The translations under genes were made by a program, and so were the position numbers. A stretch of 64,000 nt of DNA from Candidatus Iainarchaeum sp. Its GTDB lineage: Archaea > Iainarchaeota > Iainarchaeia > Iainarchaeales > JAZDEL01. Shown here piece by piece: positions 12,709 through 57,597 of this stretch; the first letter of the stretch is position 1; each line of letters begins with the position of its first letter. The notes under the pieces are model-generated. The model saw only the letters and a program-made list of their open reading frames with translations, was not told the origin of the DNA and did not search any database. The DNA lies in the NCBI GenBank assembly GCA_043808785.1, contig JAZDEL010000006.1, positions 41,264 to 105,263 of the forward strand. Reading direction: 5' to 3'.

Positions 12709-12856
12709 GCAGAACCACAGATAGGATAGGGGGAATGAAATAGTTAAACTTAATGTTCCGGCACCCGCGGGGAGTACTGAAAAAACACAAAAAACAAACC
12801 GCGGTTGGCGGGAAAAAGCATTAAATAACACGTGGGGCATTAGAGTTACGGTTAAG

Positions 12857-14029
12857 ATGGAACTGTTTCTCGTTCTCGGCGCGCTGTTCCTGCTGACGTT
12901 CCTTATCGGGCAGGTTGTGGAGAAAATAAGGGTGCCGTGGATTTTCGCCGCGCTGCTCATAGGCACCGTGCTTGCCGCGTATAACCCGGTCGGGGACGTG
13001 ACCTCGTCCGAGCCGTTTATTTTCCTGGCGCAAATGGGGATGTATTTCCTTCTTTTCGTGATAGGGTTTGAGATAGACCTTGCGGAGTTCAGGAAGGCGG
13101 GTGCGTTCATACTGAAGAGCACGTTTTTCATAATCCTGCTTGAGGCGGTGTTCGGCAGCCTGCTTATCCACTTCGTTTTCGGGTATGATTGGGCGATATC
13201 GGCAATAGTTGCGCTGTCCTTCGCCACGGTTGGGGAAGCCATACTCATCCCGATACTTGACGAGTTCGGCATCGTTAACACGAGGCTCGGGCAGAGCATA
13301 ATAGGGATAGGGACGCTCGACGACATAATAGAGGTTGCGATGCTTATCGTGGTAATAATGCTCGTTGGCTCGCAGGGCGCGGCGCAGGCAAGCGCGGGGG
13401 TTACGCTTGTTTCGCTCTTCGTGCTTTCCGCGCTTGCCGTGGTGCTGATGAGGCTGGGCAAGTCGGGCAGGAAGTTCATGTTTCACGGCATCGAGATGCT
13501 TTTCCTGTTCGTGCTTTTCGTGCTTTTCCTTTTCCTCGGGGTCGGGGAGTATGCGAACGCGGGGCCTATAGCCGCGCTCCTTGCGGGGATTTCGCTTAAG
13601 GCGTTTGTGCCGAAGGAGAGGCTGCAGGCGATAGAGTCCGAGGTAAAGACGATGTGCTACGGCTTCTTTGCGCCGGTGTTTTTCCTCTGGGTCGGGCTTT
13701 CGCTCGACATAGGGTATCTGCTTGCGTTTCCGCTGCTTGTGCTTGCGGTAGTGGTTGTTTCAAACAGCGCGAAGATTCTGGGCAGCTACATAATGGCGAG
13801 GAAGGAGCTTGGCACAAGGCAGTCGATTCTGCTCGGCATCGGGCTGTCAGTGAGGTTCAGCACGAGCATAATCATAGTAAAGATTCTTCTTGACAACGGG
13901 CTTATAGGCGCGGAGTTGTATTCGGTAATTGTCGCGTCAAGCATAGTGTTCAAGTTTGTCGTGCCCGTGCTGTTCTCAAACCTGCTCGTGAAGTGGGGCG
14001 TTTCGAAGGGCTCAACCGTAGCGGGGTAA
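12857..14029 (+). CDS. cation:proton antiporter (CPA2 / Kef-type Na+(K+)/H+ exchanger family)
   Basis: About 11-12 TM helices with Na_H_exchanger-like motifs. 390 aa. Confidence 0.7.
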   Translation: MELFLVLGALFLLTFLIGQVVEKIRVPWIFAALLIGTVLAAYNPVGDVTSSEPFIFLAQMGMYFLLFVIGFEIDLAEFRKAGAFILKSTFFIILLEAVFGSLLIHFVFGYDWAISAIVALSFATVGEAILIPILDEFGIVNTRLGQSIIGIGTLDDIIEVAMLIVVIMLVGSQGAAQASAGVTLVSLFVLSALAVVLMRLGKSGRKFMFHGIEMLFLFVLFVLFLFLGVGEYANAGPIAALLAGISLKAFVPKERLQAIESEVKTMCYGFFAPVFFLWVGLSLDIGYLLAFPLLVLAVVVVSNSAKILGSYIMARKELGTRQSILLGIGLSVRFSTSIIIVKILLDNGLIGAELYSVIVASSIVFKFVVPVLFSNLLVKWGVSKGSTVAG

Positions 14030-14042
14030 AAAAATAAGAAAG

Positions 14043-14184
14043 TGGGAAGAGCGGGATTTGAACCCGCGACACCACGGTTTCTGCTCCTTTCGCAAAACCT
14101 GGAATCTTCAGCTGCACATGGGCAGAGCGTGGAAAACTCCCCTCAACGCCCATCGTGTGCTCTCCCAGGCTGAGCTACCTTCCC
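14043..14184 (-). tRNA. tRNA-Phe(GAA)-like gene, 142 nt, probably with two introns
   Basis: 5' half GGGAAGGTAGCTCAGCCTGGGAGAGCACACG and 3' half CCGTGGTGTCGCGGGTTCAAATCCCGCTCTTCCCA are 68 nt apart. Removing a 41-nt segment after position 30 and a 27-nt segment after position 38 leaves G+CTGAAGA as the anticodon loop and a 74-nt cloverleaf. The anticodon assignment is an inference. Confidence 0.6.
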
Positions 14185-14960: not shown

Positions 14961-15072
14961 AATTTTAAAACGAGCCCGAGGGGATTTGAACCCCCGACAC
15001 CTTGGTTAAAAGCCAAGTGCTTTTGGCGGAAGGGGGCATGGAAACCCGCCCGACTTCCTCTACCAGACTGAG
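14961..15072 (-). tRNA. tRNA-Lys(UUU), 112 nt, with a 38-nt intron in the D-stem (non-canonical position)
   Basis: GGGCCCGTAGCTCAGTCTGGTAGAG | 38 nt | CACTTGG-CTTTTAA-CCAAG-GTGTC-GGGGGTTCAAATCCCCT-CGGGCTC-G. Excising GAAGTC...CAAAAG restores the GAGC D-stem and a 74-nt cloverleaf. Confidence 0.8.
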
Positions 15073-15097
15073 CTACGGGCCCGTCACAAAGAACGGG

Positions 15098-15107
15098 TTA
15101 GGAAAGG
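15098..15107 (-). promoter_or_regulatory. TATA-like box (ATTTAAAT) about 27-34 nt upstream of tRNA-Lys(UUU)
   Basis: A/T hexamer at the expected archaeal spacing. Confidence 0.4.
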
Positions 15108-15387
15108 AATTTAAATGTGTGCGGGCGGGAAAAACAAACAAAAAAAACGCGTCCGTGGTTTGGCGGGTTTGGTTGGTTTTGCCGGGTTTGCCGGGTCGTG
15201 GCGGGAAACAAACCAAAAACCGCGCAGGAGCGCGGTTGGTTTTGTTGGGCTTGCGGGGTTTGCTGTGCCGGCAAACCAGCAGGCAAACCATCGGGCATGC
15301 GTGCCCGCGGGGATTTTTCGAGTTCATTTCCGCAATGCGAAAGAAACATTTATATAATGCGTTATATATCAACTATATGTTGATTAT

Positions 15388-15615
15388 ATGGCTAGCGTCA
15401 CAACAATCCAGATAGGAAGGAATGTGCTGGAAGAACTGAAGAAAACAAAGCAGTACCCTAGGCAGACCTATTCCGAGATAATCCTGGAGATGGCAAAGGC
15501 ATACAGAAGCGGCAAATTGAAGAACCAGTACGACGAGTTCCTGCACAAGATACAGCAGGAAAAAATGAAGGAACTCTGGGGCAATAAAGAGGACGAGGCG
15601 TGGGAAAATGCCTGA
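15388..15615 (+). CDS. putative antitoxin (small DNA-binding protein) of a type II toxin-antitoxin pair
   Basis: 75-aa ORF whose stop overlaps the start of the MazF/PemK-like gene by 8 nt. Confidence 0.45.
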   Translation: MASVTTIQIGRNVLEELKKTKQYPRQTYSEIILEMAKAYRSGKLKNQYDEFLHKIQQEKMKELWGNKEDEAWENA

Positions 15616-15925
15616 GCAGGGGGATGTCGTGCTTGCGGCAATCCAGTTTGCCGACACTTTCGAGATAAAAAAGAGGCCTGCTGTAGTGCTTTTTTCCGAG
15701 TTCGGGAATGTGGTTGTTGCGGGAATTACGAGCAATACGGGGATGCAGGGCATAGCGCTTACGAAAAAGGACGGGGCGATAAAGGACAGCGTGATAAAGC
15801 CGAACTATATTTTCACTATATCGGAGAAGGCTGTGGAGAAGCGGCTTTTTTCCCTTGGCGCCGCGAAAAGGCTGGAACTATATTCCGCGCTGGAGAAAAG
15901 GCTCGGCGGGCTGAAGGGGCGCTGA
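15608..15925 (+). CDS. MazF/PemK-family toxin (mRNA interferase)
   Basis: GDVVLAAIQFADTFEIKKRPAVVL...GITSN pattern typical of PemK/MazF. 105 aa. Confidence 0.6.
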   Translation: MPEQGDVVLAAIQFADTFEIKKRPAVVLFSEFGNVVVAGITSNTGMQGIALTKKDGAIKDSVIKPNYIFTISEKAVEKRLFSLGAAKRLELYSALEKRLGGLKGR

Positions 15926-16868: not shown

Positions 16869-17004
16869 CGAGCCCGAGGGGATTTGAACCCCCGACACCC
16901 TGGTTGCCCCAGAATGGAAATTAAGAGCCTCACCCACGCACAAGGAAACCGCAAGCGGAAACTTGAAACATGACAGGTGCTCTACCAGACTGAGCTACGG
17001 GCCC
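16869..17004 (-). tRNA. tRNA-Lys(CUU)-like gene, 136 nt, probably with two introns
   Basis: Acceptor, D and T arms are identical to tRNA-Lys(UUU). Removing 45 nt after position 30 and 17 nt after position 38 leaves G+CTCTTAA as the loop between CCTGG/CCAGG stems, giving 74 nt. The anticodon assignment is an inference. Confidence 0.55.
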
Positions 17005-17036: not shown

Positions 17037-17046
17037 TATTTAAAGG
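17037..17046 (-). promoter_or_regulatory. TATA-like box (CTTTAAATA) upstream of tRNA-Lys(CUU)
   Basis: A/T box 33-42 nt from the tRNA 5' end. Confidence 0.35.
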
Positions 17047-17124
17047 TTGCGCGGGGGGAAGGGGGGAGAAAAAACACAACAAAACAAACCCCGGCGCGCC
17101 GTGGTTTTTGTTTGGTTTGTGGGG

Positions 17125-18426
17125 TTATTTCGCGCCCTTCCTGGGCTTAATCTCGTCAATCCCGTGCATGAAAGGGAGCAAGGCATCTGGGATTTTTACT
17201 GTGCCTTTTTCGGTCTGGAAGTTTTCTACAATCGCGCGGATTGTGCGCGAGGTTGCGAGCGCTGTGCTGTTCAAAGTGTGAACGAACTCCTTGCCCTGCG
17301 CTGTGCGGAATTTTATGTTAGAACGTACTGCCTGGTAAGAGGTGCAATTAGAGGCGGAAACAACTTCGGCATAATTCTGTTCGCGCGGGAACCATGCCTC
17401 TATGTCGTACTTGCGTGCTGCAACTGTGCCTATGTCGCCTGTGCAGACATCGACAACGCGGCAAGGTATGCGCAGACCCTGGAGGAGTTCCTCCGCGTTT
17501 TTCAGGAGTTCGTCAAGCAGTTTTGCGCTTTCTTCTGGTTTGCAAAATACGAACTGTTCTACCTTGTTGAACTGGTGCACGCGGAACAGGCCGCGAGTAT
17601 CAACGCCGTGCGCGCCGATTTCGCGGCGGAAGCAGGGAGAGATGCCTGCGTATTTCAAAGGCAGGGAACGCTCCTCGAGGATTTCGCCTGCGTGCATTGC
17701 GCAGAGCGGGTGCTCGGAAGTTGCAATCAGGTAAGTGTCCACACCCTCGATTTTATACATAACTTTCTCGAAGTCTTCAAGCGCCGTGACCCCTTCATAT
17801 GGCGCGCGGTTCATGAAGAAGGGCGGCTTTATCGGCGTGAAGCCTTTCTTGAGCAGGTGTGAAAGGGAGTATTGCACAAGCGCGCTGTCGAGGAGCGCGA
17901 GTTCGCCAATGAGGAAATAAAAACCCCTGCCGGAGGTTTTCGCTGCGCGCTCGAAATCAACCAATCCTGCGTTCTGCAGGAATTCGCCGTGGGGATGCAT
18001 TTTGAATGAAGGAACTTCTGTTTTGCCCCAGCGGCGGATGACCTTGTTTTCCGAGGAGTCTTTGCCCAAGGGGACGTCTTTTTCGAGGAGGTTGGGGAGG
18101 GAGAGGAGCATCGGGCGCGCCTGAAGGCGGAGTTTTTCCGCCTTTGCGTCAAGGGCCGCAATCTTTTTCGAAACCGCCTTTGCTAGCGAGATTTTTGCCT
18201 TTGCTTCTTTTTTTGAGGCGGCTTTTGAAATTGTTTCGGTTAGGGTGTTGCGCTTCTTTTTGAACTGCTCGGATTGGTAAGAGAGGCGAACGATTTTCTT
18301 GTCAAGCGCAAGAAGCCTTTCCAGCAGCGCTTCCTTCCCTCCCATGCCGCGGCGCTTGAGGTCTGCTTTTACCGCATCGGGGTTTGCGCGCACGAATTTC
18401 AGGTCGAGCATGTGAACACGAACCAA
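17125..18426 (-). CDS. serS: serine--tRNA ligase
   Basis: N-terminal coiled-coil arm plus class II aaRS core. 433 aa. Confidence 0.9.
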   Translation of the reverse strand: MVRVHMLDLKFVRANPDAVKADLKRRGMGGKEALLERLLALDKKIVRLSYQSEQFKKKRNTLTETISKAASKKEAKAKISLAKAVSKKIAALDAKAEKLRLQARPMLLSLPNLLEKDVPLGKDSSENKVIRRWGKTEVPSFKMHPHGEFLQNAGLVDFERAAKTSGRGFYFLIGELALLDSALVQYSLSHLLKKGFTPIKPPFFMNRAPYEGVTALEDFEKVMYKIEGVDTYLIATSEHPLCAMHAGEILEERSLPLKYAGISPCFRREIGAHGVDTRGLFRVHQFNKVEQFVFCKPEESAKLLDELLKNAEELLQGLRIPCRVVDVCTGDIGTVAARKYDIEAWFPREQNYAEVVSASNCTSYQAVRSNIKFRTAQGKEFVHTLNSTALATSRTIRAIVENFQTEKGTVKIPDALLPFMHGIDEIKPRKGAK

Positions 18427-25126: not shown

Positions 25127-25321
25127 ATGCTTGGAAGGAAAAAAGCCGAAGGAAGGCCGATAAAGGAGAAGGCTGAGGACAAAATCTGGCGCTCGGAGTT
25201 CGAGCAGATGTCCCTTAAAGAGCACGACGCAAAGCTTGCACAGCTCGGGCTGGATGACGAGGATATAGAGGAATTCAACGGAAAGTTTGCGGGCAAGGCG
25301 GAGAAGAAGGGGAAGAAGTAA
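25127..25321 (+). CDS. small charged protein, hypothetical
   Basis: 64-aa ORF with an AAATTTATTAAAG box about 25 nt upstream. Confidence 0.4.
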   Translation: MLGRKKAEGRPIKEKAEDKIWRSEFEQMSLKEHDAKLAQLGLDDEDIEEFNGKFAGKAEKKGKK

Positions 25322-25430
25322 GGCGCCCTAAAAAACAAACAAAAACCGCTCGCGGTTAGCGCGAACCAGCGGTTCTGTTTTCGGGTTTGTTTTTATTGCA
25401 TTTTTATTCCTTTTCATCTCCAATTGATTT

Positions 25431-43344: not shown

Positions 43345-44652
43345 TTAGTTCCCCTTCAAAAATTTGCCAATGTCAACCTTCGGCACAGGCACCTTTGAAA
43401 AATCCTTCCCGTGCGCAACTATGGGCTTCGTCATGTCGAACCCCGCCTTGCACGTCGCCCTCGTGTTCGGGTCCGCGCTCGGGTCTATGCTCGACCCTTT
43501 TTCATTCGGCTTCATAACGAAATCCTTGTCCGCCTGGAAGCGCGTTGACATCGCCCACTCGACATCCTGCGGATTGTAGATGTTTATGTCGTCATCAACA
43601 ACAAAAACATGCTTGCACGACCTGTGCCCGCGCATTGCGGCTTCAATAGCCCTCTTCCCGTCCTCTTCCGCGCGCTTCTGTATCTGCACAATCACGTGCA
43701 GCCACGAGCACCCGCCCGTGCTTACAAAAACATCCCTGCATTTCACGCCCGCCTTCTCCACTTCCTTGAATACCGTGGGCTCCTTAGGCATCCCCATCAG
43801 CAGCCTGTGCTCGTAATATGAGGAAAGAAGCGCGTGGTAAATAGGGTTCTTCCTGTGCGTGATTTTCTTCACCTCAAAAACAGGCTGCTCCCTCTGCACG
43901 TCCATGGTTCCCGTCAAATCAACAAACGGCCCCTCCTTCGCGGTTTCCTTTGTGAAGCGCCCTTCAAGGACGAACTCGGCGTCGGCGGGAACCATGACGT
44001 CCGTGCTTTTTGCTTTTGTTATTTTCAATGGTTCAAGCGTGTTTGCAATCGTGAACTCGTCGATGCCGAGGTCCACGGATGTCGCCCCCGCAAGCAGCAC
44101 ATTCGGGCTCATGCCTATGCAGAACGCGGCATCAAGTTCTCCGTCATTGCGCTTTATGAACTCGTTCAGGTGCCTCTCAAGTATGCGCATCGTGAACTTA
44201 TTTTTCCCAATCTGCAGCGCCCTGTGGAAAGAAAGGTTCATTCCCGCCTCGCGGTCGCGTGCAAAGACAATGCCGGCCGTAACATAGTTGCCTGCTTCCC
44301 CCCCGAAGTGGTGCAGCAGCGGCAGCTTGTCAAGGTCAACAGGCATCTCCATTTCCTTGCATGGCGCGTCCTTCACAACCGCAGGCTCCGTCCTTGCATC
44401 CAGCGCCCTAATCATGCGCGGAATTAATTCCCGTGTTTTTATCCCGAAATACTCCGCAATCAAATCCTTCGTGCTGAAAAAATTCGCGGCAGTCCGTATT
44501 CCCGTTCCCCCGATATCCTCGAAAACCATCGGCTGTTCCGGCATTGCAGCCATTATCCCCGCAGCCTCGAACTTCTTCGAAACCTTGCCTGAAATTTTCC
44601 TGACCCTGCCCTGCTTCTCCAATTTTGCAACGAACTCCCTGAAACCCATCAT
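43345..44652 (-). CDS. UbiD-family decarboxylase, probable trans-anhydromevalonate-5-phosphate decarboxylase
   Basis: UbiD-like sequence, 435 aa, next to ubiX and the mevalonate genes. Confidence 0.75.
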   Translation of the reverse strand: MMGFREFVAKLEKQGRVRKISGKVSKKFEAAGIMAAMPEQPMVFEDIGGTGIRTAANFFSTKDLIAEYFGIKTRELIPRMIRALDARTEPAVVKDAPCKEMEMPVDLDKLPLLHHFGGEAGNYVTAGIVFARDREAGMNLSFHRALQIGKNKFTMRILERHLNEFIKRNDGELDAAFCIGMSPNVLLAGATSVDLGIDEFTIANTLEPLKITKAKSTDVMVPADAEFVLEGRFTKETAKEGPFVDLTGTMDVQREQPVFEVKKITHRKNPIYHALLSSYYEHRLLMGMPKEPTVFKEVEKAGVKCRDVFVSTGGCSWLHVIVQIQKRAEEDGKRAIEAAMRGHRSCKHVFVVDDDINIYNPQDVEWAMSTRFQADKDFVMKPNEKGSSIDPSADPNTRATCKAGFDMTKPIVAHGKDFSKVPVPKVDIGKFLKGN

Positions 44653-44700
44653 GAACCCTCCAAACCATTGCCGCGTTTTTTGTTTTGTTATTTTGTTTTT

Positions 44701-45303
44701 TTATTTCCGATTCCCCGCAATTGCTTGCTTTCCTTCCCAGCGCCTGTAAAGGTTGTTCTCCAACCCAATTAAATCCATAACCTTCCCCGCAACAAAGTTC
44801 TCCAAATCGCCTATGGTTTTGGGTTTGTGGTAAAACCCGGGGCTGAGCGGAAAGACAATCCCTCCGGCAACCGCAATCTTGTGCAGGTTCTCGAGTGCGG
44901 GTGCGCTCAGCGGAGTCTCCCTCACGCACACGACCAGCGGCTTCCTTGTGCGCAGCATGTTGTCGGCACAGCGCGTTATAAGCGTGTTTGTGTACGCATT
45001 AGCAATCCCCGAGCACGTCTTCACGCTCGTGGGAACAACAACCATTGCATCCACTTTAAACGAGGTGCTTGAAACCTTTGCCCCCATCTCCTTTTCCGAG
45101 TAGTGGAAGTGCGCCAGTTCTTTTATTTGCTTTGCCCCAATGTTCGCTTCGGCCTTAACCAGTTCCTCCGCCCACTCGCTCATTATCAGGTGCATCTCAA
45201 CGCCCCTTTCCTTCCCCAGCGCCTTAAGCAGTGCAACCGCGTAATTCACTCCAGATGCGCCGCTCATTGCAATAATTATCCTGCGCTTAGCCATGTCACA
45301 CAC
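44701..45303 (-). CDS. ubiX: flavin prenyltransferase UbiX
   Basis: IIIAMSGASGVNYAVALLKAL, 200 aa. Confidence 0.85.
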   Translation of the reverse strand: MCDMAKRRIIIAMSGASGVNYAVALLKALGKERGVEMHLIMSEWAEELVKAEANIGAKQIKELAHFHYSEKEMGAKVSSTSFKVDAMVVVPTSVKTCSGIANAYTNTLITRCADNMLRTRKPLVVCVRETPLSAPALENLHKIAVAGGIVFPLSPGFYHKPKTIGDLENFVAGKVMDLIGLENNLYRRWEGKQAIAGNRK

Positions 45304-46234
45304 CGATTCTTGTTTTCACACTCGAATATCCGAGTTTTTCAATCGCTTCCGCAACCTTCCCCTGCAGGTCCTTCCCTGGCGTGAGCGCAACCATAAGCCC
45401 GCCCCTTCCTGTGCCTGTCAATTTTGCCCCCAGTGCCCCCGCACCGCGCGCGGCACCAACCATCTCATCCAACTCATCACAACTAACCGTAATTTTTTGC
45501 AGGAGTCCGTGGTTTTTGTTCATCAGACCGCCAACCTTTTTGAAGTCGGAAGCAAGCAGGGCTTTTTTCGCCTCCTCCGCAATTTTTTCATACTCATCAA
45601 AAACCTTCGCGGTTTCGTTTGGTTTTTCATCCTTAAGCCTGCGCACGTCAGCAATCACTTCCTTAGTGCTGCTTGTCCTCCCGCTGTTGCCTAGCACAAT
45701 CTCCACAGGCTTCTCCATTTTCAGTTTCTCCATTTCGTTCTTCCCCCCATCAGCGCCCTTCCTGAAAACAATCATCCCGCCGTAAACCGCCGCGGTATTG
45801 TCAATCCCGCTCGGCGTGCCGTGCGGCCCCTTCTCGCCCTCATATGCGGCCTCGTTTATTTTCTCATTATTCCGGCCCATTTTGAACTCGTCATCAATCG
45901 CCCGTGCAAGCGCGGTAGCGCACGCCGCGCTCGCCCCCACGCCCGAAGCCGCAACCAATGTTCCGCCAAGCGTGATGCGCACCTGCTCCTTCACGCCCAT
46001 GAACGCAAGCACATTCTCAATCAGCGCCTCGTATTCCCCGCGCTTCTGAACCTTATACCCCGGTGTTTCGGGCCTGTTGTCAACAAGTTCGTATTTTTTC
46101 CCGTTTGCCAATTTCACGCGCCCGACCTTGGCAGTTGTCGCATCCCCGAGCGCGCACGCAATCGCGGACATTCCATAAACAACGAAATGTTCGCCGAAAA
46201 GGATTGTTTTCCCGAAGCCCGAACCAGTGCCCAT
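45296..46234 (-). CDS. mvk: mevalonate kinase (GHMP kinase)
   Basis: GKTILFGEHFVVYG N-terminus and GHMP motif. Start set to the internal ATG at 46234. Confidence 0.8.
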   Translation of the reverse strand: MGTGSGFGKTILFGEHFVVYGMSAIACALGDATTAKVGRVKLANGKKYELVDNRPETPGYKVQKRGEYEALIENVLAFMGVKEQVRITLGGTLVAASGVGASAACATALARAIDDEFKMGRNNEKINEAAYEGEKGPHGTPSGIDNTAAVYGGMIVFRKGADGGKNEMEKLKMEKPVEIVLGNSGRTSSTKEVIADVRRLKDEKPNETAKVFDEYEKIAEEAKKALLASDFKKVGGLMNKNHGLLQKITVSCDELDEMVGAARGAGALGAKLTGTGRGGLMVALTPGKDLQGKVAEAIEKLGYSSVKTRIGV

Positions 46235-46355
46235 TGCAACCAACCGCGCCCAAAAAACCAAACCGCCATCCAAAAAACAGAAAACGGTTTTTTGTTTTTC
46301 GTTTCCGCCAACCAAGAAACCAAATGCGTTTTTGTTTTTTTATTTCCGCTTCCCC

Positions 46356-46778
46356 TTACTTCACGACCCTGAACTTGTAGCCGTAGGCAATCGCCCCTTC
46401 TTTCCTCTGCTCGGAAATCTTCCTGAAAACCTTCTCCACATGTGCGCCTATCCTTACCTTTTCATTTTCGCTGTCCACGACCTGGCTTAACAGCCTCGCG
46501 CCGTTCTCAAGTTCTATTATCGCAAGGAAATAAGGCGTTTCGTGGTCGAACCCCGTGGGTCCTGTCATTACCTCCGTGTATGAAATAACCTTCCCCTTCC
46601 TCGGCATCTGCTTTGCTGAAAGCTTCCCGCGCCTCCTGCAGTTCGGGCAAACTCCCCTTGCCGGGAAGAAATCCTCGCCGCATGTGCTGCACGAATTGCC
46701 GGCAAGCGTGTAGCGCTCGGGGAACTTCCTCCAGATTAACGGCAGTGCTTCGCTCATTTCATGCACCCCCCGCAACAC
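46356..46778 (-). CDS. DUF35 OB-fold/zinc-ribbon protein (scaffold of the archaeal thiolase-HMGCS complex)
   Basis: CSTCG...CPNC zinc ribbon plus OB fold. Confidence 0.75.
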   Translation of the reverse strand: MLRGVHEMSEALPLIWRKFPERYTLAGNSCSTCGEDFFPARGVCPNCRRRGKLSAKQMPRKGKVISYTEVMTGPTGFDHETPYFLAIIELENGARLLSQVVDSENEKVRIGAHVEKVFRKISEQRKEGAIAYGYKFRVVK

Positions 46779-48045
46779 AATATGCGAATTTATTTCCCGT
46801 TAATTTCCTCTCGACAAGCCCCTCTTCAGACATCCGCAATAGAACATCGCGCACATGCCTTCCCGACCTTTTGCACGCCTTTGAAATGCCCGAAGCGGTT
46901 GCGAGAACGCCCTGCGCATTAAGATTTGTGATTGCTTTAATATAGTTCTCCGAAGCCTCGTGGCGCGGGAAAGACTCGAGCCCGTCAACATACCTGCCAA
47001 GAACATGCACGAGTTTGTTTTCCTTCCGTTCCAGGCCGAAACCGACCTTCTCGAGATATTTCCGCAGGTTCTCCCTACCGCTTATTATAAGTGTCCAATT
47101 GAGCGTAACTTCCCCGCTGCTTTTGAAATTGCGCCCCCTGACGACTATTTTTGATTTAATGCCCATGACTTCCAATGACTGCTGAACATCCGACAGCAAC
47201 TGCGGCTTTTTTGCGGCAGTTTCTTCCGCAGCGGTTGTGGGGCATATCAGAGTAATCACCCTGCAGTGATAATTATCCACAACACAGCCGTCATCGTCAA
47301 ACAGCCGTCTCAGGAGGGCTATAAGCGGCTTTCTATCGCCCGCCGCAATGAACTGCCTGGGAATTCCTAATTCGTAATTATAATTTTTGTTGCCGTCAGG
47401 AATCCCGATAGTGCCGAGGATTACGCCGATTATTTTGGGGAAAATTACGCAGGGCACGCCGCTTGTCGACCTGTGGCGTGCAAACCTGACATCGCCAAAT
47501 GTGGAAACAACCGCACCCACAAAACTATCGACCTGCTGGCGCTCGTTGTTGAAGTACCAGACGCGCATCTTGCTTTTTTCTATCCCGCCGTCGCCCAAAA
47601 CTCCGCCAACAACAAGCCCGAATTCCTCGGTCAAAATTTCGAAAGGCAGCTTCGGGTTTTTTATTTTCTCTTTTGATTTCAGGGTTTTCAATTCAATTAC
47701 TTTCTTTTCTATCTTCCGCCCGTTAATGCCAAGTTCATCCGCAGCCCTGGCCAAAAACGAAAGCGGCATGCCGCTCCTTCCGACGGAATACCGCCTTGCG
47801 GATTCGCCCCTGCCGAGCCCGAAAGCCCTTGCGATTGCGGAAAACGAGCCGTGTTTCTTCAAGAGCGCCCCGAATAGTTCCTTCCTGAACTCGGCATCCA
47901 GCGTAACGCGAATTTTGCCCGCAGGCAAATCAAAAAGGGAAATGCTCGCCATTTCATCTTCACCAGCAATAAATATGTTTTTTATCCCCTTAAATAGTTT
48001 CGGGAGAGTGCATTTCCGGTGCGAAACAGAAATTTCCGTATTCAT
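46759..48045 (-). CDS. LAGLIDADG-family protein (double-motif) with N-terminal HTH-like and C-terminal winged-helix-like extensions
   Basis: LVVGGVLGDGGI and LIALLRRLFDDDGCV motifs. Its ATG overlaps the thiolase TGA (ATGA at 48045-48042), and its stop overlaps the DUF35 start by 20 nt. Confidence 0.7.
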   Translation of the reverse strand: MNTEISVSHRKCTLPKLFKGIKNIFIAGEDEMASISLFDLPAGKIRVTLDAEFRKELFGALLKKHGSFSAIARAFGLGRGESARRYSVGRSGMPLSFLARAADELGINGRKIEKKVIELKTLKSKEKIKNPKLPFEILTEEFGLVVGGVLGDGGIEKSKMRVWYFNNERQQVDSFVGAVVSTFGDVRFARHRSTSGVPCVIFPKIIGVILGTIGIPDGNKNYNYELGIPRQFIAAGDRKPLIALLRRLFDDDGCVVDNYHCRVITLICPTTAAEETAAKKPQLLSDVQQSLEVMGIKSKIVVRGRNFKSSGEVTLNWTLIISGRENLRKYLEKVGFGLERKENKLVHVLGRYVDGLESFPRHEASENYIKAITNLNAQGVLATASGISKACKRSGRHVRDVLLRMSEEGLVERKLTGNKFAYCVAGGA

Positions 48046-49220
48046 CTTTTCCCCTCCAGTGCCTGCAAAATGTGAATCACGCATGTTGCCCCACTCCCCC
48101 CGATATTGTGCGTCAGCCCTATGTGCGCATTCTTAACCTGCCTCTTCCCCGTAACCCCCCTTACTTGCTCGCAAATCTCGATAGCCTGCTTAACGCCTGT
48201 TGCGCCGACAGGGTGCCCGCATTTAAGCCCGCCCGAGGTGTTAATCGGGATTTCACCTTTTAGTGCGGTTTTTCCGTCCTCGCTTGCTTTTCCCCCTTTG
48301 CCCTTTTTGAAGAACCCCAAATCCTCTATTGCAAGTATTTCCGCGATTGTAAAGCAGTCATGCACTTCCGCCAAATCAATATCCGAAATCTTAAGTCCCG
48401 ACTGCCTGAGCGCCTCCTGCACCGCAACCTTCGTCGCCCACAGTTCGGTAAGGCTCTTCCTGCTAGCAACGGCAAGAGTATCCGAAGCCTGCGCGCTCGC
48501 AATAATCTCGACAGGTTCCTCACACAGTTTTCTTGCCTTATCCGTCGCACACAGGATTGCCGCTGCTGCACCGTCGCTGATGGGCGAGCAATCCAGCAGT
48601 TTCAGGGGAGTTGCAACATACCCTGAATTCATCACATCCTCAATTGTAATTTCATTGTGGAATTGTGAGTGGGGGCTGTGCATGCCGTTCGCATGGTTCT
48701 TCACTGCAACAGCGGCCATCTGTTCCTCCGTTGTTTTGAACTCGTGCATATGCCTCCTTGCAAGCAGCGCATAGAGTGCGGGGAAAGTTGCGCCCTGGAA
48801 AAGCTCGGTTTCCTGGTCCCCCGCGCCCCCCAAAGCAAAGCCCGCTTCCTCGGTGCTTACCTCAGTCATCTTCTCCGCCCCGCCGACAGCAACAACATCA
48901 TACATTCCGGAAGCGATCGCGTGGTAAGCCGCCCTAAGGGCAACCCCGCCAGAAGCGCATGCAGCCTCAACACGCGTGCTCGGCGCGGGATTCAGCCCTA
49001 ACTGATCCGCAATAAGCGCCCCAATATGCTCCTGCCCTATGAACCTTCCAGAAGCCATGCATCCGCCGTAAACCGCCTCTATATCCGCCCCGCTTATGCA
49101 CGCGTCGCTTATCGCCATTATTCCCGCCTCGGCAATAAGCTCGCGGAACGACTTGCCCCAGTGCTCCCCGAATTTCGTTATGCCCGCGCCGATAACCGAA
49201 ACGCTCCTCATGCCGCGCAC
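48042..49220 (-). CDS. acetyl-CoA C-acetyltransferase (archaeal acetoacetyl-CoA thiolase)
   Basis: Thiolase Cys region CASGG, C-terminal NIGGSGATCV. Confidence 0.9.
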   Translation of the reverse strand: MRGMRSVSVIGAGITKFGEHWGKSFRELIAEAGIMAISDACISGADIEAVYGGCMASGRFIGQEHIGALIADQLGLNPAPSTRVEAACASGGVALRAAYHAIASGMYDVVAVGGAEKMTEVSTEEAGFALGGAGDQETELFQGATFPALYALLARRHMHEFKTTEEQMAAVAVKNHANGMHSPHSQFHNEITIEDVMNSGYVATPLKLLDCSPISDGAAAAILCATDKARKLCEEPVEIIASAQASDTLAVASRKSLTELWATKVAVQEALRQSGLKISDIDLAEVHDCFTIAEILAIEDLGFFKKGKGGKASEDGKTALKGEIPINTSGGLKCGHPVGATGVKQAIEICEQVRGVTGKRQVKNAHIGLTHNIGGSGATCVIHILQALEGKR

Positions 49221-49337
49221 CCCGTGCCAATGCCGATTGCGGAAACGCCTCTCATAGCATCAACCCTTTCGACAAATTTTCCCGCAAAACCCCGCCCGTG
49301 AACCCGCGCGCGGTTTTTTGTTTTTTTGCCGCCCCCG

Positions 49338-50384
49338 TCAGAGCGACTTCAGCTTCCTCCTGTGTTTCGTGTAAAGCGCGTAATCGATGTACTTTTTCTC
49401 CTTTACCATTTCAAGCACAGGCACCTTCGCCCTTCTCCCCGGGATGTTCCTTGTGGCAGTAAATGAGAACGCATCGCTTCCCGCCCCCGAACCGTAACTT
49501 ACCGCAAGAATTTTCTGCTTCGGCTTTGCAACATCAAGAATGCTCGCCAGGCCCAGCATTGTTGAGCCCGAGTATGTGTTGCCTATTATGGGCGTTACCA
49601 GGCCCTGCTCCAGCCTCCCCCTTTCCACGCCCAGAATTTTCCCCGCGCGCAAAGGAAACTTCCCGTTGGGCTGGTGGAAAACCACGTAATCGAAATCCGA
49701 AACCTTCTCCCCCGTCCTGTTCAGCAGCCCCTTTGCGGCGCCAACCACATGCCTGAAATATGCCGGCTCTCCTGTGAAACGCCCCCCGTGCTCGGGGAAC
49801 TCCGCGTGCTGCCTCCTCCAGAAATCGGGCGTGTCAGTTGTGAATGAAAATGTGTCATTAACCCGCGCAATAATTTCCTTCGGCTTCCTGCCGATTATTA
49901 TCGCCGCCCCGCCGCTCCCCGCGGTGTATTCAAGCGCATCACCGGGCTTCCCCTGTGCAGTGTCCGCGCCTATAGCCATCCCGTACTCTATCATTTTGCT
50001 CTCGCAAAACCCTATGCACATCTGCACCCCCGCAGTGCCGGCCTTGCACGCAAACTCCAAATCCGCAGCCATGTACTCGGGCGCTGCGCCTATCGCGTCC
50101 CCGACAATTGTTGATGTGGGCTTCACAGCATAAGGGTGGCTCTCGCTCCCCACGTAAAGCGCCCCTATTTTGATTGCATCAATCTTCGCGGTTTCCACAG
50201 CGCGCCTTGCCGCTTCCACAGAAATGGTTGCGCAGTCCTCGTCATAGGCGGCAACAGCCTTCTCCCTCACCCCCAGGCCCGCGCTTATGCGCTTTCCGTC
50301 CTTTTCCCAGACGCGCGCTATATCCTCGACCGCAATCCTGAACTTCGGCACATATGCGCCGTAACCCACAATTCCGCAATCCAT
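49338..50384 (-). CDS. hydroxymethylglutaryl-CoA synthase
   Basis: Archaeal HMGCS-like sequence, 348 aa, with the catalytic Cys region. Confidence 0.9.
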   Translation of the reverse strand: MDCGIVGYGAYVPKFRIAVEDIARVWEKDGKRISAGLGVREKAVAAYDEDCATISVEAARRAVETAKIDAIKIGALYVGSESHPYAVKPTSTIVGDAIGAAPEYMAADLEFACKAGTAGVQMCIGFCESKMIEYGMAIGADTAQGKPGDALEYTAGSGGAAIIIGRKPKEIIARVNDTFSFTTDTPDFWRRQHAEFPEHGGRFTGEPAYFRHVVGAAKGLLNRTGEKVSDFDYVVFHQPNGKFPLRAGKILGVERGRLEQGLVTPIIGNTYSGSTMLGLASILDVAKPKQKILAVSYGSGAGSDAFSFTATRNIPGRRAKVPVLEMVKEKKYIDYALYTKHRRKLKSL

Positions 50385-50409
50385 ATGCCCACCGGTTATT
50401 AATGTTCAA

Positions 50410-51711
50410 TTAACCTCTCTTTTTATTCTCTTTCCTTTCCCCCGCGGGTTTTGCCGCCTTCTTTCGCAGATTGACGAGAATTTCCGCTGCGTTATCCGCG
50501 GATATCCTGCCGCATTTTGCCATTTCCCCCGCAACCTTCTCAATTTCCCCGCCTTTTGCCCCCGCTGCAACCGCAACATTCTTCGCATGCAGCCCCATGT
50601 GCCCTTTCTGTATCCCCTCCTTCACAATCGCGCGGTTTGCGGCAAATGTCTGCGCAAGCCCGACAGCGCAGCACACCTCCGCAAGCTCCTTCGCGCTTTT
50701 AATTCCCATAATTTTCAATGCAATTTTTGCAAGAGGGTGAGTTTTTGTCGCCCCCCCGACAATTCCCAAAGCGAGCGGCATTTCCATTTCCCCCGCCAAA
50801 TCCCCCGATTTGGTTATGTAGAAGTTCTGCAGTGCCCTGTATGTTCCGTCCCTCGCGGCATAGGCATGCGCCCCGGCCTCCGCAGCGCGCCAGTCATTGC
50901 CCGCAGCAATCAGCACGGCATCGATGCCGTTCATAATCCCCTTGTTGTTCGTGCACGCCCTGAAAACATCCGCCTGCGCAAGCGCGCTTGCATCCGCGAT
51001 TGCCTCAACCAATTCGCCCCCCAATTCCTCCTTTTTCCACACCGCGCACGCCTTTACGGTGCGGTGTATCGCATAATTGCTTATTATTTTAAGGCGCGCC
51101 CTGCCGCCTGCCAACCTCTCCAATTCGGGCGCAATCCTCTCGCACATGCTGTTCACGGCATTCGCGCCCATCGCATCGCCGCAGTTCACGAGGATGTGCA
51201 TAACCAGCATCTTCCCGCGCTGCGTTTCCACTTCGCGCAGCTGAATTTCCTTTGCGCCTCCCCCGAATTTCAGGAGGACAGGGTCGCAGGAATTTGCTGT
51301 TTTGAGCAGTGAGGCGGAATTTGCCGTTATCTCGCGCTCCGCCTTCCCGAAATCCTTAACCCCCACCAGCTGCACCTGCCCTATCATAATCGGTTCGCTC
51401 GCCTCCGCCTTGAACCCCCCCAAAGCGCGCGCCAATTTTGCCGCGTTGGAGGCGGCGGCAATAATGCTCGGCTCCTCGGTAACCATGGGCACAAGATAAT
51501 CCTTCCCGTTCACGCGGAAGTTCGTCGCAACCCCCATAGGCATTCCGTAAACGCTCACCGCGTTCTCCACCATCCTGTCCGCGGTCTCGAACTCCAGCCC
51601 GCCCTTCCCGAGCGCCGCAACCTCATCAGCGCCGAGCGCGGACTCGCGCTTGAGCACATCAAGCCTCTCCCCGCGCTTCAATTTGTAAAACCCGCTTATG
51701 TCAGATTTCAT
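50410..51711 (-). CDS. HMG-CoA reductase, class II (bacterial/mvaA type)
   Basis: VPMVTEEPSIIAAASNAAKLARALGGF and DAMGAN motifs. 433 aa, with no membrane domain. Confidence 0.85.
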   Translation of the reverse strand: MKSDISGFYKLKRGERLDVLKRESALGADEVAALGKGGLEFETADRMVENAVSVYGMPMGVATNFRVNGKDYLVPMVTEEPSIIAAASNAAKLARALGGFKAEASEPIMIGQVQLVGVKDFGKAEREITANSASLLKTANSCDPVLLKFGGGAKEIQLREVETQRGKMLVMHILVNCGDAMGANAVNSMCERIAPELERLAGGRARLKIISNYAIHRTVKACAVWKKEELGGELVEAIADASALAQADVFRACTNNKGIMNGIDAVLIAAGNDWRAAEAGAHAYAARDGTYRALQNFYITKSGDLAGEMEMPLALGIVGGATKTHPLAKIALKIMGIKSAKELAEVCCAVGLAQTFAANRAIVKEGIQKGHMGLHAKNVAVAAGAKGGEIEKVAGEMAKCGRISADNAAEILVNLRKKAAKPAGERKENKKRG

Positions 51712-52460: not shown

Positions 52461-52488
52461 GCGAAACCACGCCGCGGTTTTTTTATTT

Positions 52489-54839: not shown

Positions 54840-55598
54840 TCAGGCGCGAAGCAAAAGCGCGGGTTCTCCGCGCCGCAGCAGCACGCTTCCCCGTGCAGGA
54901 ACCCTTACCTTCCCGTCAATAATAACCTCGCATCCTTTCGTGAATTTTGCCAGGGTTATTTTTGCCCCGTTACCAACAACAAAAACCTTCCCGCGGTTGA
55001 GCATGGAATTGATTGGCACAACCTCAAAAACCCCGTGCTTCGGGTTTATTTTTTTTCCGCCTGCGGAGTAAGCGTGCGCAGTGCTCCCTGTCGGAGTTGA
55101 AACAATAACCCCGTCCGCCCTGTCCTTTAATTTCAATTTCCCGTTCACGCGCAGTTCGTATTCCATAATGTGCCCGAATTTTCCTGTCACAAGTTCAACT
55201 TCGTTAAGCGCAAGCGCATGTTTCCTGCCGTTAACAACCGGCAGAATCCGCGCGCGTTTTTCGATTTTATATTTTCCCGCGAGCAGTTTTTCCGCGGCGC
55301 TTAGCATCTTTTCCCTCGGCACCCTCATCAGGTTCCCGTGCCTGCCGCAGTTCACCCCAAGCACTGGCGTGCCGTGCTTCAGTTCCCTGCAGGCGCGAAG
55401 CAGTGTTCCGTCCCCGCCGAGCGCGATTGCCACGTCAACCCTGAACGCGCCAAGTTTTTTCCCCTGTGGTAAAAGTTCCCCGTCAAAAACAAACTTAACC
55501 CCGCGCTTCTTCAGGAACGCTGCAAGTTTCTTCGCCTCCGCCCTTGCGCAGGGGTTTTTCCCGCTGCCGATGATGCCGAGCGATTTAGGCGGTTTCAT
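54840..55598 (-). CDS. NAD+ kinase
   Basis: GGDGTLL motif. Confidence 0.85.
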   Translation of the reverse strand: MKPPKSLGIIGSGKNPCARAEAKKLAAFLKKRGVKFVFDGELLPQGKKLGAFRVDVAIALGGDGTLLRACRELKHGTPVLGVNCGRHGNLMRVPREKMLSAAEKLLAGKYKIEKRARILPVVNGRKHALALNEVELVTGKFGHIMEYELRVNGKLKLKDRADGVIVSTPTGSTAHAYSAGGKKINPKHGVFEVVPINSMLNRGKVFVVGNGAKITLAKFTKGCEVIIDGKVRVPARGSVLLRRGEPALLLRA

Positions 55599-56185
55599 GG
55601 CAAACGCCTCACGAGTTTAGGCTTGAATTTGATGTCGTTGAGTTTGTTTAACACCTCTTTATGTCGCCTAATTAGCTGTGCCCTCAGGTTTCCGCCCCAC
55701 AGTTGCTGCGAACTGAACTTTTTTCCTAACTCCCCCAATTCCAGCCTCAGCTCTGGCTCCCTTCGCTTATCGGGCGGAAGTTTGCCTAATTCCTCAAAGA
55801 CACGCCAACGCTCCTTGTCAATCGGCGACTGGATGTGTGTTGGTTTGCCCCATGCATCTATCCCGGACATGCTTTTGAAGTAGTTCCGCTCCTCCTTTCG
55901 CATTGACCCGATGAACTTTCCACTCTTCTCAGGGTTGCCCAGCTCGGTCGGAATATCGCGGCATTCAAATTTAGCCCCATTGTAGCCGCCCAAAAAAGCG
56001 CCGCCTTCTTTGCTATACAGCCCCGAATGAATAATTTTTTTGCCCGTACTCGCTTTAGTGCAAGGGATAACAATCCAATCAGGCCTAATCGCCACGATGT
56101 TCTTCGTGCATGCCCGCAATTTAGCCGCACATCGTTCATAGTGCAGCCCCTCATCGAACAGCATCACAGTTAGCCCTTTTCTCAC
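55595..56185 (-). CDS. hypothetical protein
   Basis: 196 aa, 4-nt overlaps on both sides. Confidence 0.4.
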   Translation of the reverse strand: MRKGLTVMLFDEGLHYERCAAKLRACTKNIVAIRPDWIVIPCTKASTGKKIIHSGLYSKEGGAFLGGYNGAKFECRDIPTELGNPEKSGKFIGSMRKEERNYFKSMSGIDAWGKPTHIQSPIDKERWRVFEELGKLPPDKRREPELRLELGELGKKFSSQQLWGGNLRAQLIRRHKEVLNKLNDIKFKPKLVRRLP

Positions 56186-57597
56186 GTTCCCGCCTCCTCG
56201 GCAATCGCCCTTGCAGCAGCCCTGCCGTCCCTGATTGCCTCAATCGCGGTGCGCGGCCCAGTAACAGCATCGCCCGCAGCATAAACCCGCGCAACGGAAG
56301 TGCGGAACTTTTCATCAACCTTTATGTTGCCCTTTTCATCAAGTTCAATCCCCGCATCATTCATCTGCTGCACAGCCGAAGCCTGCCCGCATGCAATAAC
56401 CGCCCAACTTGCGGATATTTTTTTTGTTTCCCCAGTAGGCTCAGGCTTCGAGCGCCCGCTGCTGTCAGGCTTGCCAAGGCGCATGCGCTCGAACAAAACC
56501 GCGGTTAGTTTGTTTTTTTCTTTTCCGCCGCCCAGAAATTCCCCGGGTGAGAGCAAAAATTCGAATTTCACGCCCTCCTTTTTCGCGTGCTCCAGCTCAA
56601 GAGCGCGGGAAGGCATCTCCTTTTCGGTGCGCCTGTAGGCAACAACCGCCTCCGCCCCTGCGCGGGCGGCAACCCTCGCGGCATCCATCGCGCTGTTCCC
56701 CCCGCCTATAATCAGAACTGTTTCGCCCTTTTTCAGCTTCAGCCCCCCCCATTTCTCCCCCTGCAGGAATGCCAGGGCGCCTATTACGCCCTCTGTTCCT
56801 TCTCCCTTCGCGCCGAGGCACATATCCTCCCCCGCGCCAATTCCCAAAAACACAAAGCCAAACCTGCCCAGCAGCGCCTTTACCGAGGTTATCTTCCTCC
56901 CCGCCTCGAACATGACGCCCATCTCGCGCAGGTTTTGCACTTCCCTCTCGACAACAATCCCCGCGAGCCTGAAATCGGGAATCATCTGCCCCGCAATTCC
57001 CCCGAACTTTCCCCTCTGCTCGAAAACCGTAACCCCAAAGCCGCGCAGAGCGAGCTCATAGGCGCATGCCAAACCCGCAACTCCCGAACCCACAACCGCA
57101 ACCGAACCAACCACTGCCGCGGTTTTGTTTGTTTTTTTTCCGCCAGCAGCAGCGGAACCAACCGCGGCGGCGGTTTTGTTTTTGTTTGTTTTTTTTCCGC
57201 CCGCGGATTTTGATTTTTTTATTTTTTCCGTTATTTTCTTCCGCTCATACTCGGCAAGGAACTCCTCCAATTTGCCTATCCTTATCGCCTTCCCCGCCCC
57301 TGCAAGCACGCACGCGCCCTCGCACTGCCTCTCCTGCGCGCAGATGCGCGAGGTTATGGAGGGGAAAGGGTTGACGCCCCTGACAAGCGCGAGCGCAGAG
57401 TCAAATTTGCGCTCCGCTATAAGCCGATTCACCTCCTTTATCGGCCTGTGCGCGGGGCAGCCCTGCTCGCACAGGGGAACAGCACACTGCAGGCAGCGCT
57501 TCGCCTCGGCTACCGCCTCTTCCTCGGTGTAAACCCTGCCCGAATTGCAGGTTTTATCCTTATTGCGCCCGACCATATACCAAACCTTCCCGCACAC
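56182..57597 (-). CDS. GltD/SudA-like Fe-S flavoprotein oxidoreductase (glutamate synthase small-subunit family) with an in-frame low-complexity insertion
   Basis: N-terminal Cys-rich Fe-S region, Rossmann motif VVGSGVAGLA, and an NAD(P)-binding second domain. An about 45-aa K/T/A-rich tandem insert lies before the Rossmann motif. Confidence 0.8.
   Translation of the reverse strand: MCGKVWYMVGRNKDKTCNSGRVYTEEEAVAEAKRCLQCAVPLCEQGCPAHRPIKEVNRLIAERKFDSALALVRGVNPFPSITSRICAQERQCEGACVLAGAGKAIRIGKLEEFLAEYERKKITEKIKKSKSAGGKKTNKNKTAAAVGSAAAGGKKTNKTAAVVGSVAVVGSGVAGLACAYELALRGFGVTVFEQRGKFGGIAGQMIPDFRLAGIVVEREVQNLREMGVMFEAGRKITSVKALLGRFGFVFLGIGAGEDMCLGAKGEGTEGVIGALAFLQGEKWGGLKLKKGETVLIIGGGNSAMDAARVAARAGAEAVVAYRRTEKEMPSRALELEHAKKEGVKFEFLLSPGEFLGGGKEKNKLTAVLFERMRLGKPDSSGRSKPEPTGETKKISASWAVIACGQASAVQQMNDAGIELDEKGNIKVDEKFRTSVARVYAAGDAVTGPRTAIEAIRDGRAAARAIAEEAGT
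57108..57216 (-). repeat. two tandem copies of the A/C-rich spacer repeat that adjoins CCGCGG, sitting in-frame within the GltD-like CDS
   Basis: On the plus strand: CCGCGGTTTTGTTTGTTTTTTTTCCGCC and CCGCGGCGGCGGTTTTGTTTTTGTTTGTTTTTTTTCCGCCCGCGG. Confidence 0.6.

Follow-up and report, generated by a model that had tools for sequence, protein, structure and literature searches.

Coding tandem repeats and microsatellite expansions located in permissive surface or interdomain linkers arise by slipped-strand mispairing, and the in-frame insert described here, a correctly observed feature with an ordinary explanation, is a further instance of this known kind of event. The insert lies in a flavoprotein gene of Candidatus Iainarchaeum sp. 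(assembly GCA_043808785.1), within a 64,000-nucleotide stretch of contig JAZDEL010000006.1 (positions 41,264 to 105,263, forward strand) that we call the window and whose own numbering is used throughout. Like the described expansions, it is built of units arranged head to tail, each a multiple of three nucleotides long, it is of low complexity and falls in a linker predicted to be disordered, its copies differ by a hexamer-slip indel, and linker length differs between lineages. It departs from them in having only two diverged copies, so that there is no actively hypervariable array on current evidence, and in that its unit includes a duplicated piece of the start of the conserved Rossmann strand beta1. 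Quite probably, replication slippage or unequal recombination duplicated the gene's own low-complexity interdomain linker, and with it the first beta1 codons, locally, in tandem and in frame.

The earlier note on this DNA had proposed a different origin, namely that a repeat element found in intergenic spacers was exapted into coding sequence. On that reading the insert would resemble the Rickettsia palindromic elements (RPEs), small palindromic repeats present in both coding and noncoding regions, of which R. felis carries 728, 85 of them in open reading frames (ORFs) (PMC1166351); it would likewise be a short, partly palindromic sequence of intergenic type that forms an in-frame surface loop absent from orthologs. 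However, RPEs are recognisable families that can be detected with hidden Markov models, whereas the copies in the window share only a loose architecture and short words. The insert also differs from RPEs in that an ortholog has its precursor in place and in that part of each unit is native Rossmann-motif DNA. On the evidence, the insert is not RPE-like.

The host is one intact NfnB/SudA/GltD-type [4Fe-4S]-flavoprotein gene. It is a single, uninterrupted 471-codon ORF on the minus strand (56182..57597, GTG start at 57597). The ATG at 57576 is likely its start codon, which gives a gene at 56182..57576 (-) and a product of 464 aa; the public protein P0001 ('Candidatus Diapherotrites archaeon') is 100% identical to this product, has the same 464 aa and begins at that ATG. 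The assignment to one intact gene of this type follows from the Pfam domains, Fer4_20 (PF14691) at aa 21-121 (7.7e-29) and Pyr_redox_2 at aa 165-458 (8.4e-26), and from the structural matches. Among solved structures 5jca_L, the large subunit of P. furiosus NfnI, is nearest (E 2.7e-84), and T. maritima 4ylf_B and small chains of glutamate synthase also match closely. The HMMER alignment to 5jca_L breaks around query residues 126-157, which is the insert region.

Compared with the described members of the family (5jca_L, 4ylf_B and 2vdc_G), the window protein has the same domain order, the same Cys ligands and the same two dinucleotide-binding motifs. Residues C35, C38, C43, C47, C86, C92 and C96, conserved Cys of a domain that binds two [4Fe-4S] clusters, are invariant in alignment A1 together with E89, as are G170-S171-G172...G175 and G298-G299-G300-N301. 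It differs from the family in three respects: its linker is about 30 aa above the family median; it belongs to a clade, formed with its relatives P0002 and P0003, without the FPEYDTP loop; and no NfnA/SudB- or GltB-type partner gene lies next to it, its neighbours in the window being a DJ-1/PfpI gene, a 196-aa ORF without Pfam match and an NAD kinase gene, with identical neighbours on L001, the contig that carries P0002. Since no partner-subunit gene adjoins, the flavoprotein's subtype and physiological reaction are best left at the NfnB/SudA/GltD-like level. For annotation purposes this is a single intact NfnB/GltD-like gene whose linker is a tolerated, lineage-variable site. We also note that the FPEYDTP loop, which precedes the NAD(P)H Rossmann motif (A1 columns ~298-305), is present in every aligned homolog outside that clade, and that the 196-aa ORF (55595-56185, -), which overlaps the flavoprotein stop codon by 4 nt, keeps its position in the relative (L001:2960-3577) and may possibly encode an unrecognised partner subunit.

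The units lie within the continuous ORF between Fer4_20 and Pyr_redox_2, just ahead of the GxGxxG motif. In the order in which the gene is read, the parts of the region are these:

57205..57240, minus strand: Lys-rich end of the long helix ahead of the insert, KKITEKIKKSKS, the part of the linker common to L001
57154..57204, minus strand: repeat unit 1 (u1), 51 nt = 17 codons, AGGKKTNKNKTAAAVGS, aa 132-148 in the 471-aa numbering
57172..57196, minus strand: 25-nt tract of pure A/C on the mRNA strand (KKTNKNKT codons), holding an A8 run
57103..57153, minus strand: repeat unit 2 (u2), 51 nt = 17 codons, AAAGGKKTNKTAAVVGS, aa 149-165 in the 471-aa numbering
57121..57139, minus strand: 19-nt tract of pure A/C on the mRNA strand (KKTNKT codons), holding an A8 run
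57073..57102, minus strand: native Rossmann beta1 and GxGxxG codons (VAVVGSGVAG), with the G/S/G columns invariant in alignments A1 and A2

A repeat search found two head-to-tail copies with a start-to-start spacing of 51-57 nt; in codon register each is exactly 51 nt long. In a gapped alignment u1 and u2 match in 40 of 44 columns with one 6-nt indel (AAAAAC), and codon by codon they show four synonymous differences, one nonsynonymous difference and a two-codon indel. With 27% of the possible single changes being synonymous, at least four synonymous differences out of five have a probability of P=0.022. That the substitutions between the units are mostly synonymous argues that the region is really translated and is no assembly artefact; the copies are real, diverged and read in the annotated frame. 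Tandem Repeats Finder (TRF) reports a period of 6 with 3.7 copies at 57174-57195, inside the unit 1 tract. The VAVVGSGVAG codons that follow u2 constitute a third, partial copy of the AVVGS core, and a 16-nt copy family (D3) has a spacing of 15-18 nt there. Apart from the tandem units, the repeat search yielded only an internal 16-nt palindrome pair, with no terminal inverted repeats, direct repeats or target-site duplication at the ends of the insert.

The origin of the units can be read from the nearest ortholog. L001, whose ortholog is about 80% identical, is syntenic with the window over the DJ-1/PfpI gene, the flavoprotein gene, the hypothetical ORF, NAD kinase and PFL. At the orthologous codons its linker reads AAA AAG GCA AAA AAA ACA AAA ACA AAA AAC GGC TCG GTT GCC GTG GTT GGT TCA GGC, giving the product KKAKKTKTKNGS-VAVVGSG; it is single-copy (L001:1975-2035), with one 23-nt tract of pure A/C (KKTKTKN; L001:1987-2009) followed by the beta1 codons. 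Aligned three ways at the DNA level, the window linker exceeds that of L001 by 81 bases, or 27 codons, and the linker on L002, the contig of P0003, is short and has no A/C tract (ITKIGKRAAVVGSG). The linkers thus form a series, from short (L002) through one with an A/C tract (L001, +8 codons) to one with the duplicated block (window, +34 codons).

The 3′ ends of the two units, which encode AxVGS, are GCC GCG GTT GGT TCC and GCA GTG GTT GGT TCG, and each agrees at 13 of 15 bases with the L001 beta1 codons GCC GTG GTT GGT TCA; because of this agreement the units appear to be copies of native coding DNA. The glycine codon GGT, which makes up 6% of the Gly codons in the window, is kept in the AxVGS of both units and in L001 beta1. 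VAVVGSG is the invariant start of the dinucleotide-binding domain, and therefore the 3′ third of each unit is native DNA and not foreign. The units are also nearer to each other (score 53) than to any spacer (at most 45). Head-to-tail order, a period that is a multiple of three (51 nt) and a single-copy precursor in a relative are among the marks by which a coding tandem duplication is recognised, and all three were found.

In the sequence of events that we favor, a short, L002-like linker would have gained a pure A/C tract encoding KKTKTKN in the ancestor of the window genome and L001. In the window lineage the block consisting of GG, the A/C tract and A-x-V-G-S would then have been duplicated to give two full 51-nt units ahead of the functional VAVVGSG, and the copies would later have diverged through point changes and the slip of one hexamer (AAAAAC). 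We infer slippage as the mechanism and neutrality of the outcome; the effect of the insert is most likely neutral or mildly modulatory, since the linker site tolerates large insertions across the family.

Alignment with homologs places the insert in this lineage alone: among 14 and then 52 aligned homologs only the window protein has it. The protein is 27 codons shorter at the insert site in P0002, the nearest relative (78-82% identity), and 34 codons shorter in P0003 (65-69% identity), and scans of genome and metagenome contigs for closer relatives or strain variants gave only homologs at no more than 44% identity. Measured from IGxLE to GSG, the linker spans 32-74 aa in the 52 homologs (median 36) and 66 aa in the window protein. 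In most other homologs the linker is short and ends in GKKVAVVGSG; long inserts of unrelated sequence are found at this point in P0060, P0052 and P0097. Because of this range and these unrelated inserts, the site appears to be generally permissive for insertions, and such variation in length between lineages would be compatible with the earlier note's alternative of a variable hotspot.

AlphaFold2, run on the alignment of 52 sequences, gives a model that is confident overall, with a mean predicted local distance difference test (pLDDT) score of 86.7 and a predicted template modeling (pTM) score of 0.85. Residues 133-151 (464-aa numbering) have a pLDDT below 50, and residues 126-154 are without secondary structure between the long helix 100-125 and beta1 at 155-162. 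The insert is thus predicted to be a disordered Lys/Thr/Ala/Gly-rich loop of about 30 residues on the surface linker between the 2x[4Fe-4S] and FAD domains. Much of what had been said of the insert from the letters alone therefore stands: there are two tandem in-frame units in one CDS, they are of low complexity and directly precede the Rossmann motif (they end at 57103 and the GxGxxG codons follow), the ortholog alignment that had been suggested finds the insert lineage-specific, absent as it is from all the homologs, and the suggested disorder prediction returns an unstructured loop.

The proposed link to intergenic DNA requires a description of the spacers. Runs of A/C (or T/G) of at least 12 nt number 30 in the window, 10.6% of which is intergenic; 15 of them are intergenic, so that spacers are enriched about 8-fold in such tracts. 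Among genic tracts, none but the two in the insert (19 and 25 nt) exceeds 14 nt. The principal intergenic members are as follows:

12780-12812: spacer member between the divergent LysRS and NhaP genes, upstream of a TATA-like box
15121..15250, plus strand: best-matching intergenic member, with two tandem units of G-rich / A/C tract / GC palindrome / GGTT-rich sequence (scores 41-45), between a tRNA-like gene (-) and the divergent PemK toxin-antitoxin operon (+), upstream of a TATA-like box
17069..17124, plus strand: intergenic member absent from the earlier list (score 42); on the minus strand it is a hairpin and T/G tract directly after the SerRS stop codon, in terminator orientation
25330-25400: hairpin and T-tract member downstream of a 64-aa ORF
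29763: co-directional spacer tract between the aminotransferase and transketolase genes
44675, 46286, 46328 and 49312: co-directional spacer tracts within the mevalonate-pathway cluster
46235..46355, minus strand: spacer preceding the mevalonate kinase gene, whose true start is ATG 46234; it holds the word CGCGGTTGGTT and two A/C-tract units in tandem
49286..49335, minus strand: HMG-CoA synthase/thiolase spacer, GGGGCGGCAAAAAAACAAAAAACCGCGCGCGGGTT
52461..52488, minus strand: PFL/activase spacer, with an A-tract (below the 12-nt cutoff) and CCGCGGCGTGGTT

Except for 17069..17124, these sites had been listed as operon spacers, with tracts A-rich on the strand that is sense for the gene downstream. 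The tracts are real and the polarity holds for 12 of the 15 intergenic ones, but 12781-12812 and 15121-15250 lie in divergent regions and 25330-25400 is a 3′ hairpin, so the label of operon spacer does not fit these three. The spacer "family" is heterogeneous. Its co-directional members lie in short spacers and mostly retain just the A/C half on the sense strand; the homologous PFL/activase spacer of L001 has the full form, consisting of A/C tract, GC hairpin and T/G tract.

Bacterial intrinsic and bidirectional terminators consist of a hairpin and oligo-T with a complementary upstream A-tract, and archaeal RNA polymerase terminates at oligo-dT. Several spacers are similar in that their fold joins an A/C arm to a GC stem-loop and a T/G arm, with T runs after it, downstream of a gene (17040-17128 (-), 25318-25405 (+), L001:6705-6810 and 15118-15260 (-)). 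They differ from such terminators in that most of the co-directional spacers show the A/C half alone on the sense strand, two members lie between divergent promoters, and a consensus scan finds no significant enrichment of terminator-like sites (34 vs 26.4 +/- 6.2 expected). A GC stem-loop and T-run downstream of a gene is seen at 17069-17124, at 25330-25400 and in the L001 spacer after PFL, and not at the 12 of 15 tracts that are A-rich on the sense strand. The same scan flags the insert and the 49.3-kb spacer, each on its antisense strand; we do not take these flags as functional evidence. Rfam gives only tRNA matches in the window and assigns neither the spacers nor the insert to a known RNA family; a literature search on Diapherotrites intergenic or terminator elements found nothing relevant. 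The idea that the A/C tract and GGTT form a Shine-Dalgarno region in all spacers was rejected, as two members are upstream of TATA boxes in divergent regions. A spacer function is not needed to explain the insert.

How far the resemblance between units and spacers goes bears directly on an explanation that we regard as improbable, in which a module of A/C tract and GC palindrome was copied in frame from a spacer into the A-rich linker (for example by microhomology-mediated template switching) and then duplicated. A number of results speak for such a capture and against a purely local duplication. The best local alignments of the units with the rest of the window score 42 and 43 (15121-15210 and 17041-17130; at 15121, TGCGGGCGGGAAAAACAAACAAAAAAAACGCGTCCGTGGTTTGG is aligned with TGCTGGCGGAAAAAAAACAAACAAAACCGCGGCAGTGGTTGG), compared with a mean of 28-30 (sd 3) for dinucleotide-shuffled unit queries, 0 of 60 of which attain the observed score, and a mean of ~31 (sd 4.4) for queries recoded synonymously with the window's codon usage, 1-2 of 80 of which attain it. 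The native L001 linker as query scores only 28-33 with the same spacers. The words GGCGG and CCGCGG, common to units and spacers, are not in the L001 linker, and three of the four occurrences of CGCGGTTGG in the window are in spacers and the fourth is in unit 1. Tandem pairs occur in the spacers at 15121-15250 and 46235-46355 as well, the only long coding A/C tracts are those of the insert, and the units depart from the genome's usual codon choice, with all seven lysines encoded by AAA vs 47% AAA usage (P=0.005). The donor search covered the 64-kb window, and a high-identity donor elsewhere in the genome is possible; finally, the comparison rests on the only two close relatives in the databases searched. 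Against capture, the native A/C tract and identical VVGS codons of L001 explain most of each unit. As a query the L001 linker finds the same spacers, and it likewise consists of a pure A/C tract rich in no lysine codon but AAA in that tract; the spacer-like character therefore predates the duplication and belongs to native coding DNA. The best spacer alignments have ~80% identity with several gaps over 45-57 nt, no exact match between unit and spacer is longer than 17 bases, and a search of the window with a 28-nt unit core at up to three mismatches matched itself alone. The spacer members are as far from one another as from the insert, too far to be recent copies of one element, and the longest near-match to the units (22/24) is in a gene. 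Two coding look-alikes score as well as most spacers:

55044..55067, minus strand: in the NAD kinase gene, TCCGCAGGCGGAAAAAAAATAAAC = SAGGKKIN, 22/24 bases vs unit 1
56497..56532, minus strand: in the same flavoprotein gene, GGCGGCGGAAAAGAAAAAAACAAACTAACCGCGGTT = GGGKEKNKLTAV, native and base-for-base conserved in L001

The words said to bound the family are not specific markers of it either. CCGCGG occurs 68 times in the window (~25 expected by a rough base-composition estimate), mostly in genes, and was rejected as a boundary marker on that ground; AAACCGCGG occurs 10 times vs 1.65 expected, and half of its occurrences are genic. The codons for Gly-Gly-Lys and Val-Gly-Ser (GGC GGA AAA; GTT GGT TC) spell the spacer words GGCGGAAAA and GGTTGGTT, the former being simply Gly-Gly-Lys. 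Codon spelling can thus mimic spacer motifs, and therefore resemblance alone is no proof of element transfer. Of the features of a mobile palindromic element, many similar copies in the window, bounding repeats and an empty ortholog site, none was found; the L001 site is not empty, as it holds a single A/C tract and AVVGS codons alignable to the units. The claim that insert and spacers are the same element accordingly holds as a likeness of architecture beyond what the controls give, and fails as full-length similarity; exaptation is not supported, in view of the single-copy precursor, the native beta1 codons, the lack of end marks and the coding look-alikes. We conclude that a common mutational process, the growth of A/C microsatellite-like tracts with hexamer periodicity, acts in the spacers and in the unconstrained linker, and that codon spelling explains the rest: the two resemble each other because A/C tracts with GC-rich words accumulate where constraint is weak. 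Such tracts call for caution in this genome, since they arise in spacers and unconstrained coding linkers alike. A bolder form of the capture idea holds that the module of G-rich sequence, A/C tract, CCGCGG-type palindrome and GGTTGG is a sequence-specific regulatory or structural intergenic element of this DPANN lineage, copied by template switching, one copy of which was domesticated as a linker; we give it a slim chance, slightly below that of capture as such. Should the spacer-element reading prove correct, the gene would illustrate something rare in archaea, the recruitment of intergenic repeat DNA into a protein.

Local duplication is compatible with another idea, that the expanded loop has been selected as a flexible, positively charged tether which alters partner or ferredoxin docking, or oligomerisation, of a stand-alone NfnB-like protein. 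We consider this rather doubtful. The excess of synonymous differences between the units, the frame kept across two A8 runs, the lysine-rich character shared with the shorter L001 linker, and the conserved 196-aa ORF in place of an adjoining NfnA/SudB-type gene all agree with it, but five differences are a tiny sample, the closest relatives lack the insert, no conserved motif is present in the region, for which disorder is predicted, and other lineages carry unrelated, compositionally different sequences at the site. A further slim possibility, which goes with the bolder form of the capture idea, is that the two A8 runs make expression of the flavoprotein slippage-switchable. Spurious expansion of a low-complexity region by the metagenome assembler is very unlikely, even though the source is a metagenome-assembled genome, the protein cluster contains one member, from one contig, the region contains A8 homopolymers, and the contig scans gave no independent assembly. 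Artefactual copies are expected to be identical, and these differ by five substitutions, mostly synonymous, and a 6-nt indel; the frame is intact, both flanking domains are complete and confidently folded in the AlphaFold2 model, and a 102-nt repeat with diverged copies should be resolvable by ordinary short reads. The spacer-like look of the inter-domain DNA might also suggest two genes, an Fe-S protein and a flavoprotein, with a real spacer between them and fused in appearance by a frameshift error. This has next to no probability: the region has no stop codon, both domains are in the same frame, L001 and L002 carry the same fused gene with short linkers, and Fer4_20 and Pyr_redox_2 are in one chain in 120/120 homologs among the matches listed. 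The continuous ORF and the universally fused architecture exclude it.

Several other features of the window may be mentioned. Homopolymer runs of at least 8 nt number only eight in the 64 kb, and four of them are A8 runs in neighboring mRNAs, three in the NfnB/GltD-like mRNA and one in that of the adjacent NAD kinase; these runs (T8 on the plus strand, at 56418, 57132, 57189 and 55049) may be prone to slippage or frameshifting. A co-directional archaeal mevalonate-pathway cluster at 43345-51711 (-), in which most of the A-rich operon spacers are found, comprises HMG-CoA reductase, HMG-CoA synthase, thiolase, a DUF35/ChsH2-OB protein, GHMP (mevalonate) kinase, a UbiX-like flavoprotein and a UbiD-like decarboxylase.

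Near the spacer at 15121..15250 there are three long tRNA-like genes on the minus strand (14043-14184, 14967-15082 and 16869-17004), 116-142 nt in length and presumably intron-bearing, all of which ARAGORN missed. Two of them pass the Rfam tRNA threshold, the third being 14967-15082 (26.7 bits), and the 5′ and 3′ parts of 14967-15082 and 16869-17004 are 98-100% identical with a different middle. In this part of the window, 15388-15925 (+) contains a PemK/MazF-type toxin gene (15608..15925, Pfam 9.6e-08) after a small ORF that weakly matches VapB antitoxins; two long ORFs there, 15002..15415 (+) and 15373..15753 (-) are probably spurious.

Two far-apart inverted repeats have no obvious explanation, a perfect one of 21 nt at 10415-10435/31613-31633 and one of 23 nt with 96% complementarity at 21953-21975/36821-36843. 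Neighboring paralogs of 376 and 378 aa at 2583-3713 and 4417-5553 (both -) have DNA stretches of 119-167 nt in common that are 72-76% identical. Finally, the 798-codon ORF 11083-13479 (-) over-extends a class I LysRS gene, as the Pfam domain begins only at aa 269 and no in-frame start other than ATG 12708 is plausible; the strand opposite this over-extended ORF carries the Na+/H+ exchanger gene at 12857..14029 (+).

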